Shown here one piece after another: positions 14,404 through 15,332 of a DNA stretch of 19,480 nt. Both the position numbers and the translations under genes were made by a program. Under the pieces are notes generated by a model that worked only from the letters and a program-made list of their open reading frames with translations, was not told where the DNA came from and ran no database searches. This DNA is from a virus (lineage: Duplodnaviria; Heunggongvirae; Uroviricota; Caudoviricetes), in the IMG/VR virus record IMGVR_UViG_2648501130_000004; one strand, 5' to 3'. Numbering within the stretch: position 1 is the first letter of the stretch; every line of letters begins with the position of its first letter.

Positions 14404-14434
14404 ATGGTTTTCGCCGAAGATGACGACATGATGC

Positions 14435-14463
14435 TTGCATTTTTCAAAAAATATGGATAAGAT
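14435..14463 (+). promoter_or_regulatory. Candidate late promoter PR' (TTGCAT - 17 bp - TAAGAT)
   Basis: Hexamers read from the sequence 32 nt downstream of the Q stop and about 40 nt upstream of the terminator hairpin. Confidence 0.4.
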
Positions 14464-14500
14464 TTTCCCAACGATGGGCTTTGTATGTCTACCGTTGATA

Positions 14501-14524
14501 AGATTTAAGAACCCGCCACTGAGC
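14501..14524 (+). terminator. Intrinsic terminator (tR'-like): CCCGC-cactga-GCGGG followed by T7
   Basis: Hairpin plus U-tract read directly; canonical position downstream of Q/PR'. Confidence 0.7.
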
Positions 14525-14692
14525 GGGTTTTTTTGTGCCAGATGTCTCATGAAACTATGAAATGGATTGGTGCGTTAAACATTTTTTCTTATTATCTTTT
14601 AGATTTTGGAAAGATGGTTAACGTCTGTATTCCAGAAACTCGATGATTATTTAATAAATTAGTTTCAATGATGCTTCTAGGTTATGACTGTA

Positions 14693-15109
14693 ATGAAAAA
14701 GGTATTAATAGCAGCGATAGGTTTTTGTTTAGTTGGTTGTGCAGGTATGAAATTACCTGAGTATTCGCAAGTTAAAGCAAGTCCGTATTATACAGATTGC
14801 CGTGCGTTTGCCATGGATGTTTATAAAAATGATGGATACAGCAAAATTGCGAAAACTACTATCCTTAGCATGGATGATGTGAAGGCTAGATATATTGTGA
14901 CAGGGTGTGTAGTTGCTATGGGGAAAAACACTGTAGAGGAAATCAAAGCTGATCTCTCTGCTAAAGGGAGTTCTTTTGGGCTTATCAGTGGAGCTTGTTC
15001 TAGTGCGGCATGTCGGGTTGATGTAGAGCAGCAAATGAACGCTTATGTACTTGGTAGTTATTATGCTGCAAATAAAAAATTCCCGGATAAAATGAAAGCA
15101 GAGTTTTAA
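14693..15109 (+). CDS. AT-rich lipoprotein moron (signal peptide MKKVLIAAIGFCLVGC with lipobox LVGC)
   Basis: ORF track 14684..15109; the second in-frame ATG 14693 gives a classic lipoprotein signal; GC about 37 percent; mature part rich in Cys. Confidence 0.7.
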   Translation: MKKVLIAAIGFCLVGCAGMKLPEYSQVKASPYYTDCRAFAMDVYKNDGYSKIAKTTILSMDDVKARYIVTGCVVAMGKNTVEEIKADLSAKGSSFGLISGACSSAACRVDVEQQMNAYVLGSYYAANKKFPDKMKAEF

Positions 15110-15187
15110 GTAAACCTTGTTTTCGATTATATGTCGAAGATAAATGTTAGTAACGGCATAATAAGTAAATATATAGCTGTGATAGCA

Positions 15188-15210
15188 ACCCGCCACTGAG
15201 CGGGTTTTTT
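15188..15210 (+). terminator. Second copy of the same terminator hairpin (CCCGC-cactga-GCGGG followed by T6)
   Basis: About 25-bp direct repeat of 14501..14526, placed 78 nt after the lipoprotein stop. Confidence 0.7.
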
Positions 15211-15332
15211 GTACCTGTAAACTTGGTGCAGTACAGTAAACACGCTGGTGGTCGTGAATACTGACTTTTTATCTTGCTGGCTTTTTAGACAAGAGTTATT
15301 GGTATGTCATGTTAACCAGAAGGGAAAAAGAC

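Follow-up and report, generated by a model that had tools for sequence, protein, structure and literature searches.

The stretch of DNA analyzed here, 19,480 nucleotides of a tailed phage (IMG/VR record IMGVR_UViG_2648501130_000004; the whole stretch is called the window below), is a defective prophage of ~19 kb between yjjG and prfC. Directly behind its gene for the late antiterminator Q lies a small lipoprotein gene bracketed by two copies of one terminator hairpin, T1 and T2. The bracketed unit, here called the cassette, and its immediate flanks comprise the following features, with contents given as guanine plus cytosine (GC).

The locus: Q, two hairpins and a lipoprotein gene

13651-14403 (+): late antiterminator gene Q, lambda-Q family, 250 aa (Pfam PF03589 at 1.3e-53)
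14435-14475 (+): late promoter PR', read from the sequence, with the -35 element TTGCAT at 14435-14440 and the -10 element TAAGAT at 14458-14463
14510-14534 (+): terminator copy 1 (T1), assigned to tR', hairpin AACCCGC-CACTGA-GCGGGTT followed by 7 T (from folding and repeat search)
14535-14683 (+): AT-rich leader of the insert, between T1 and the gene, 149 nt, 30% GC
14684-15109 (+): lipoprotein gene, 141 aa, an open reading frame with its lipobox Cys codon at 14738-14740 and a full-length match to phrog_4748 at 7.5e-91
15110-15186 (+): 3' untranslated part of the insert, 30% GC, missing from empty sites
15187-15210 (+): terminator copy 2 (T2), the same hairpin followed by 6 T, running into the late-operon leader GTACCTGTAAACTTGG...
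15309-15509 (+): orf47-like small gene of the late leader region, matching phrog_331, 66 aa in the window

The exact unit shared by the two hairpins is the 24-nt sequence AACCCGCCACTGAGCGGGTTTTTT at 14510-14533 and 15187-15210, a spacing of 677 nt, and 0 of 200 dinucleotide shuffles of the window held two matches of this repeat. The original prediction, made from the letters of the window, had described a 25-nt repeat at 14501 and 15188. The second of these copies is exact (15188-15212), whereas the first actually stands at 14511-14535 and has 2 mismatches, because the T-run there counts 7 T against the 6 T of copy 2. When one T indel is allowed, the similarity continues for a further ~7 nt, as GTGCCAG after copy 1 and GTACCTG after copy 2. 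Folding of 46-nt stretches gave -14.1 kcal/mol for T1 and -12.0 kcal/mol for T2, each as a GC-rich hairpin with a U-tract. A terminator consensus scan called T2 and missed T1, which we think escaped since its longest possible stem consumes the T-run. The T1/tR' hairpin is annotated as a terminator in phages Ayreon and SfV, and in Ayreon the annotation covers both copies.

The unit upstream of T1 closely follows that of lambda. Annotated as Q in both Ayreon and SfV, the antiterminator shares 35% identity with lambda Q (E 6e-42), which also matches PF03589. The layout of PR' is TTGCAT-17-TAAGAT-6-AACGATGGG in the window and TTGACT-17-TAAATT-6-AACGATGGG in lambda. The AACGAT(GGG) that stands 6 nt after the -10 element (14470-14478) we take, from lambda PR', to be the promoter-proximal sigma-70 pause signal where Q loads. 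By this layout the start site of PR' would lie near 14470, and T1 follows ~40-65 nt from it. Because Q is homologous to that of lambda, PR' is laid out as in lambda and the hairpin comes ~40 nt past the predicted start, T1 can be assigned to tR' of a lambda-type Q/PR' unit, the position in which the first copy had originally been placed. In lambda and Shiga toxin (Stx) phage lysogens PR' is constitutive, and tR' halts its transcripts to leave a short RNA (PMC7547250). The corresponding RNA from PR' to T1 would be ~65 nt long in lysogens carrying the present unit.

Two further observations concern this region. Relative to lambda Q, the window Q has a 48-residue insertion (at about residues 123-170) with extra CxxC motifs that match a DnaJ-type zinc-finger model. 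A second hairpin, at 14469-14497, falls within the predicted PR'-T1 transcript (14470-14534). By analogy, this ~65-nt transcript could be the counterpart of lambda 6S RNA or StxS, perhaps a constitutive small RNA of the prophage; an Rfam scan of 14300-15400 returned no above-threshold family and only sub-threshold, terminator-like matches to Trp and Leu leaders.

The insert between the hairpins is 652 bp long and contains 35.7% GC. Its lipoprotein coding sequence, which the original prediction had called AT-rich at about 37%, contains 38.5%; the neighboring values are 47% for Q, 55.5% for a DUF968 gene upstream and 50% for orf47. The leader holds a candidate sigma-70 promoter, TTGGTG (14567-14572) and TATTAT (14590-14595) with a 17-nt spacer, and a promoter inside the insert is plausible from this pair. 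A Salmonella version of the cassette, described below, has a leader 61% identical to that of the window and keeps the promoter-like pair as TTGGTA-18-TATCAT (locus L004, 4880-4909; also L132). The best promoter-like match of the region is a different one, ATGGCA-16-TATAAT (10/12), which lies on the minus strand inside the lipoprotein gene (14787-14814); it could be a source of antisense RNA towards T1 or may be a by-product of AT-rich composition.

The product of the insert has the hallmarks of a bacterial lipoprotein. Its N-terminus, MKKVLIAAIGFCLVGC, comprises a KK n-region, a hydrophobic core and the lipobox L-V-G-C that had been noticed at the outset, and the lipobox residue Cys19 is invariant in 8 of 8 aligned homologues, as are Cys39, 75, 105 and 110. 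Each of the features that mark a signal peptidase II substrate (a charged n-region, a core, the motif [LVI][ASTVI][GAS]C and an invariant Cys) is present in the sequence. Under the +2 sorting rule Ala at +2 predicts the outer membrane, and the protein, which has Ala at this position, is predicted to be lipid-modified and sorted there. An alternative ATG at 14693 gives a protein of 138 aa. The mature protein has 123 aa, not the 120 first proposed, with a pI of 8.6 and 3 Pro. The AlphaFold2 model is an all-alpha helical bundle (predicted local distance difference test, pLDDT, 79; predicted template modeling score, pTM, 0.75), and the periplasmic part is probably a helical bundle with two disulfides. 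The gene is under purifying selection, with a ratio of nonsynonymous to synonymous substitution (dN/dS) of ~0.1. Comparison of the gene of Escherichia coli with that of Salmonella gives 0.08, at synonymous sites close to saturation (proportion of synonymous differences, pS, 0.67), and other pairs give 0.11-0.22; this range of 0.08-0.22 rules out a spurious open reading frame.

Searches for relatives of the lipoprotein returned little. Pfam, NCBIfam and PADLOC gave no match, and PHROGs gave phrog_4748 only, the function of which is unassigned there. Among 5.8 billion proteins there were 9 clusters, each of them hypothetical; a profile run against 1.84 billion representatives gave 8 hits, and a sequence profile search of the PDB found chance matches only (E >= 0.01). 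Neither sequence nor fold searches yielded a relative of known function; Bor and Lom are unrelated by either, and no spanin or other lysis component was matched. A literature search found no account of the gene. The lipoprotein is an orphan, a member of a tiny family with no relative of assigned function, and the roles in exclusion, serum resistance or adhesion that had been proposed for it drew no support from the homology and fold searches. If a role is to be guessed at, we favor an accessory one acting on the envelope, for instance to protect it or to exclude other phages.

Distribution of the cassette and of its hairpins

The stretch from Q through T1 and the gene to T2 recurs at 98-99.9% identity in Ayreon, mEp460, PhiR47_1, phiSTEC1575-Stx2k and 15 Stx2c phages, and the cassette is present in 215 of 5426 complete E. 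coli genomes (~4%). The empty junction, with one hairpin and no gene, occurs in 186 of the same 5426 genomes and in 16 IMG/VR contigs. SfV and vB_EcoM-720R4 (720R4) illustrate this state: both have the same Q and downstream genes with flanks 97.5-99.7% identical, a single hairpin and no lipoprotein gene. The alignment of related prophages that the original prediction had called for thus shows relatives with a single terminator and no gene, not a backbone in which all members have the gene and both hairpins. Since it is carried or missing in genomes otherwise 97-99.9% identical, is foreign in composition and has its own downstream terminator, we conclude that the insert is a moron, classical in its architecture and placed at a site known as a hotspot of cargo. 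It is not a lysis component, because complete phages, with and without the cassette, carry their own holin, endolysin and Rz/Rz1 genes further downstream. In Stx2k and Stx2c phages the gene order is Q-T-lipoprotein-T-orf47-...-stxAB.

In PhiR47_1 (locus L266, 2196-2505) four tRNA genes (Met, Lys, Thr, Gly) come after the cassette with its T2, and a holin gene stands behind them. This arrangement, which stands in place of orf47 and a methylase gene, is a further exchange of cargo just past the hairpin.

The single hairpins of empty sites can be matched to the two hairpins of the cassette. In 720R4 the left flank of T1 meets the right flank of T2 exactly through a single hairpin with 6 T, and this single site is the same as T2 plus its flank. 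At the SfV single site the allele is T1-like, with G in the loop, 7 T and GTGCCT, and runs on into the late leader; T1 plus the bases that follow it (GTGCCTGATGT) resembles this site. Among E. coli alleles the T1 loop is variable (A, G or C) and T2 is constant. Because T1 resembles the SfV site and T2 with its flank equals the 720R4 site, T1 and T2 appear to be two resident-type alleles of tR'. In empty sites the PR' leader joins a single hairpin directly, and the T2 hairpin with the same right flank is also found behind other left contexts.

The hairpin is one of a class, CCCGCC-NN-TGAGCGGG-T6+, represented in the window at 14512-14533 and 15189-15210 and widespread among IMG/VR phage contigs; the loci compared for the class (L009-L128 and L142-L262) range in GC content from 0.31 to 0.65. 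The exact 22-mer occurs in more than 120 contigs with 79 distinct flank pairs. Loop variants that retain TGA occur in 84 and 42 contigs, and the same stem with loops lacking TGA in 5 and 0. A single exact mobile 22-mer was considered as an explanation and is ruled out, since TGA-loop variants are also common and the element is a class. All three common loop variants share a loose motif, R-T-K-C-C-Y-G-R-A-A, after the T-run. In many phages class hairpins mark module boundaries, frequently with a small accessory gene before them and a structural or lysis gene after. The class looks similar to the E. coli trp attenuator hairpin.

The flanks of the hairpin combine freely. The same hairpin with the late leader is also found after a Q of the PF06530 type and another gene, of 214 aa, and the PR' leader with the hairpin also precedes a different late leader, behind which stands an open reading frame that we take, by eye and with no Pfam check, to encode an AraC-type regulator. 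All four combinations of the two left and two right contexts occur. Partial matches in E. coli break at the hairpin, the right halves starting at its first base and the left halves ending 5-7 nt beyond it, and the hairpin remains identical in cassettes whose neutral sites are saturated. As judged from these flanks and breakpoints, the hairpin appears to be a mosaic joint. Membership in a widespread class makes the identity of T1 and T2 weaker as evidence for duplication; the stronger argument is the contiguity of each copy with its resident flanks.

The insert holds no recombinase or transposase gene and no terminal inverted repeats. Its only inverted repeat, an AT-rich one, pairs 14581-14595 with 15158-15172 (13/15), at distances of 47 and 15 nt from the insert ends. 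A transposon footprint is ruled out by the lack of a recombinase and of terminal inverted repeats and by the length of the direct repeat, 24-31 nt as against a target duplication of 2-14 bp, and for want of the same two hallmarks we attribute the bracket to recombination in a shared terminator, not to transposition.

Homologues of the lipoprotein gene occur in several other settings. In a Salmonella prophage a 76%-identical gene stands behind an unrelated Q (PF06576/PF06530) and is likewise bracketed by hairpins: the upstream one, AGCCCGCCACTGAGCGGGTTTTTTTGTACCTGAAAC, has the stem and loop found in the window, and the downstream one, AACCCGCATTGCGCGGGTTTTTGTATCCGAAAC, has another loop on a perfect stem. 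The downstream terminator appears from this comparison to be under selection. Because the Salmonella cassette is bracketed and its leader is homologous, the arrangement of terminator, leader, gene and terminator must be old and has been joined to two Q modules. The original prediction had offered two origins for the bracket; the Salmonella version behind an unrelated Q fits that of a portable bracketed cassette, while a target duplication finds neither transposase nor terminal inverted repeats.

In other Salmonella prophages a family member lies next to vapBC in the early-left region, and about 200 SSU5-like phage-plasmids (~110 kb; Klebsiella, Cronobacter, Citrobacter) carry a more distant homologue. 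The phage-plasmid homologue is always followed 10 nt on by the gene of a 99-aa Cys-containing lipoprotein (L005, 5446-5745; L133, 751-1050; L263, 5434-5733), for which Pfam gave no match; the lambdoid moron has just the first gene of this lipoprotein pair. Chromosomal homologues 55-62% identical occur in Serratia outside any recognizable prophage (L267, 2944-3417; L268 and L269, 3001-3417). These chromosomal copies suggest a host envelope gene as the source of the phage gene.

Proposed working and competing explanations

The architecture and logic of this moron are textbook, and we consider it probable, though well short of secure, that it works through the combined action of T1, a leader promoter or leakage, insulation by T2 and read-through by Q, within a bracket produced by hairpin recombination. 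In the repressed prophage, PR' transcripts would end at T1 and leave the RNA of ~65 nt. The lipoprotein gene would then be transcribed, if at all, from the weak leader promoter TTGGTG-17-TATTAT or by leakage through T1, and T2 would halt that transcription before it reached the late and lysis genes beyond. Once the prophage is induced, RNA polymerase modified by Q would pass T1 and T2, and the lipoprotein would be made with the late genes; in Stx2c and Stx2k phages it would then be co-expressed with stx2. The bracket would have arisen by recombination within a short, widely shared hairpin. That Q read-through switches the gene on we infer from its position only. The conserved promoter-like pair and the maintained T2 suggest that the gene may also be transcribed on its own, and the perfect T2 hairpin kept by the diverged lineage speaks for a transcription start between the two terminators.

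Several observations weigh against this account. The promoter-like pair of the leader is weak (8/12, under the scan threshold) and went uncalled, and a literature search found no expression data for the insert or the gene. The cassette is linked to the same Q and orf47 right flank in 214 of 215 E. coli genomes, and movement between modules is documented only by the comparison of E. coli with Salmonella. The GTRCCTG that follows the T-run is also general to the terminator class and is weak evidence for one duplication. The 720R4-type polymorphism could reflect either gain or loss. Finally, the cassette shows no strict link with a receptor-binding J type: the J C-terminus that Ayreon, mEp460, Stx2c and Stx2k phages have in common at 90-95% identity is also frequent in phages without the cassette, and that of PhiR47_1 is different (55% identical).

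The main competing explanation, which we regard as possible but hardly the expected outcome, is that the gene is a purely Q-dependent late gene with no promoter in the insert, serving lytic growth only, and that T2 is a leftover of insertion. Masking of the receptor on the dying cell and its debris, which spares progeny phage as Llp does in T5, would be an example of such a function. The location directly behind tR', upstream of the lysis genes and on the late strand, agrees with this explanation, as do the weakness of the uncalled promoter and the sharing of one J receptor-binding type by 4 of the 5 cassette-bearing phage lineages. It fits poorly, however, with the J of PhiR47_1 and the cassette-free phages of the common J type, with a gene that remains intact in a defective prophage lacking tail and lysis genes, and with a T2 that is still a perfect hairpin in a lineage at synonymous saturation, which is hard to explain if nothing starts between the two terminators. 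Rather more doubtful is a history mainly of loss, in which the bracketed gene is the older state and empty sites came from recombination between the direct hairpin copies. The 720R4-type empty site is the product expected of T1 x T2 recombination, and occupied and empty sites are about equally frequent (215 and 186 genomes). Yet the SfV-type single site, in which a T1-like allele runs into the late leader, cannot by its sequence be a deletion product. The composition of the insert is foreign, the hairpin with the late leader also follows other Q types in loci free of the gene, and the family members of the Serratia chromosome and of the phage-plasmids have no bracket, all of which likewise count against a history of loss.

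It is also conceivable, but improbable in our view, that nothing was duplicated and that the moron brought its own terminator of a common class, the identity of T1 and T2 being coincidental. Class hairpins are indeed common (more than 120, 84 and 42 contigs for the three loop variants), often follow small accessory genes and have the post-T-run motif as a class feature. Against this stands the continuity of T2 with the normal late leader, which begins at the first base of the hairpin and is also seen in empty sites and with other Q types, and the like continuity of T1 with the PR' leader; being contiguous with the late-operon leader, T2 is better seen as resident-type than as brought in. Moreover, family members outside the late operon have unrelated terminators, and no donor context was found with the gene and hairpin minus the late leader. 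A lysis component, for instance an Rz1-type outer-membrane spanin or a lysis regulator, would suit a lipoprotein whose gene belongs to the late operon and precedes the lysis genes, but we give this explanation almost no credence. The mature protein, 123 aa, helical and with 3 Pro, is unlike the very small proline-rich Rz1 encoded next to or within Rz; no lysis match was found in Pfam or PHROGs, phages with and without the cassette have their own lysis genes, and near-identical functional phages lack the gene.

Beyond the moron with its terminators and Q read-through, a broader proposal may be put forward that we hold to be speculative and unlikely as a whole. The hairpin class with its R-T-K-C-C-Y-G tail would be, over and above an efficient terminator, a shared recombination joint at which unrelated temperate phages exchange accessory genes, with the cassette caught between two joints, and the lipoprotein would be a new envelope-acting factor of lysogenic conversion or exclusion, recruited from a host gene as in Serratia and co-transcribed with Shiga toxin 2c/2k.

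Known systems and the surrounding prophage

The cassette resembles the lambdoid morons (the concept drawn from HK97 and HK022, and bor and lom of lambda) in its patchy presence, AT-rich composition and downstream terminator, in encoding an envelope protein and perhaps in having its own promoter upstream of the gene. It differs in that its terminator is a second allele of tR' itself. Bor and Lom have no sequence or fold relation to the lipoprotein, whose gene lies on the late strand behind tR' and not among tail genes; Ayreon, mEp460 and PhiR47_1 also carry lom. With stx and other cargo between Q and holin genes the cassette shares its position, downstream of Q/PR'/tR' and upstream of the lysis genes, and the expectation of Q antitermination, but it lies right at tR', has its own downstream terminator and encodes a lipoprotein rather than a toxin.

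As in the units that produce lambda 6S RNA and StxS, a constitutive late promoter would here stand close to an intrinsic terminator. Lambda 6S RNA is ~194 nt long. The RNA predicted here is ~65 nt, whereas PR' and tR' are 258 nt apart in Stx phages (PMC7547250).

Cor of phi80, N15 and HK022 and Llp of T5 are, like the present protein, small phage lipoproteins predicted in the outer membrane. The family libraries, searched without a direct comparison with Cor and Llp sequences, show no similarity between them and the present lipoprotein, which differs also in having no strict receptor-binding link. The boundary or linker sequences of the modular-evolution model of lambdoid phages are comparable as short conserved sequences at mosaic breakpoints that join modules in all combinations; the present joint differs as a functional intrinsic terminator of a widespread class, two alleles of which bracket one gene.

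The interval from Q to the lysis genes is a lambdoid cargo site important for the host, for Shiga toxin above all. The cassette is a second, uncharacterized cargo there. Some 4% of complete E. coli genomes carry it, as do Stx2c and Stx2k phages, in which its induction should accompany that of the toxin. Should the lipoprotein alter the envelope, by phage exclusion or by serum or stress resistance, it would be a new factor of lysogenic conversion. The locus also offers a clean natural example of a terminator as a joint at which phage modules and a moron are exchanged.

Around the insert the prophage is much reduced. A Pfam scan identified a KilA-N gene, the DUF968 gene and Q upstream. Downstream, the window keeps 66 of the 75 codons of the orf47-like gene, which is full-length (75 aa) in locus L024. 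The match of the window to Ayreon stops at ~15508 and a C-terminal tail-fibre fragment comes next. A deletion joint at ~15508/15509 fuses the orf47-like gene to this tail-fibre remnant, and the methylase, lysis, head and tail genes are gone.

Past the joint, two tail-fibre-assembly genes lie in opposite orientation (15966-16499, +; 16528-17055, -), followed by an inverted fibre gene (17059-18021, -). From this gene order 15589-18021 appears to be what is left of an invertible host-range segment whose invertase is truncated. At the other end of the window the integrase gene (1-1224) is adjoined by the gene of a 597-aa protein (1388-3181, +) that fits the PADLOC AbiU model (2.8e-111) and bears the annotation AIPR family; by this match it is a putative abortive-infection defence gene of the defective prophage.

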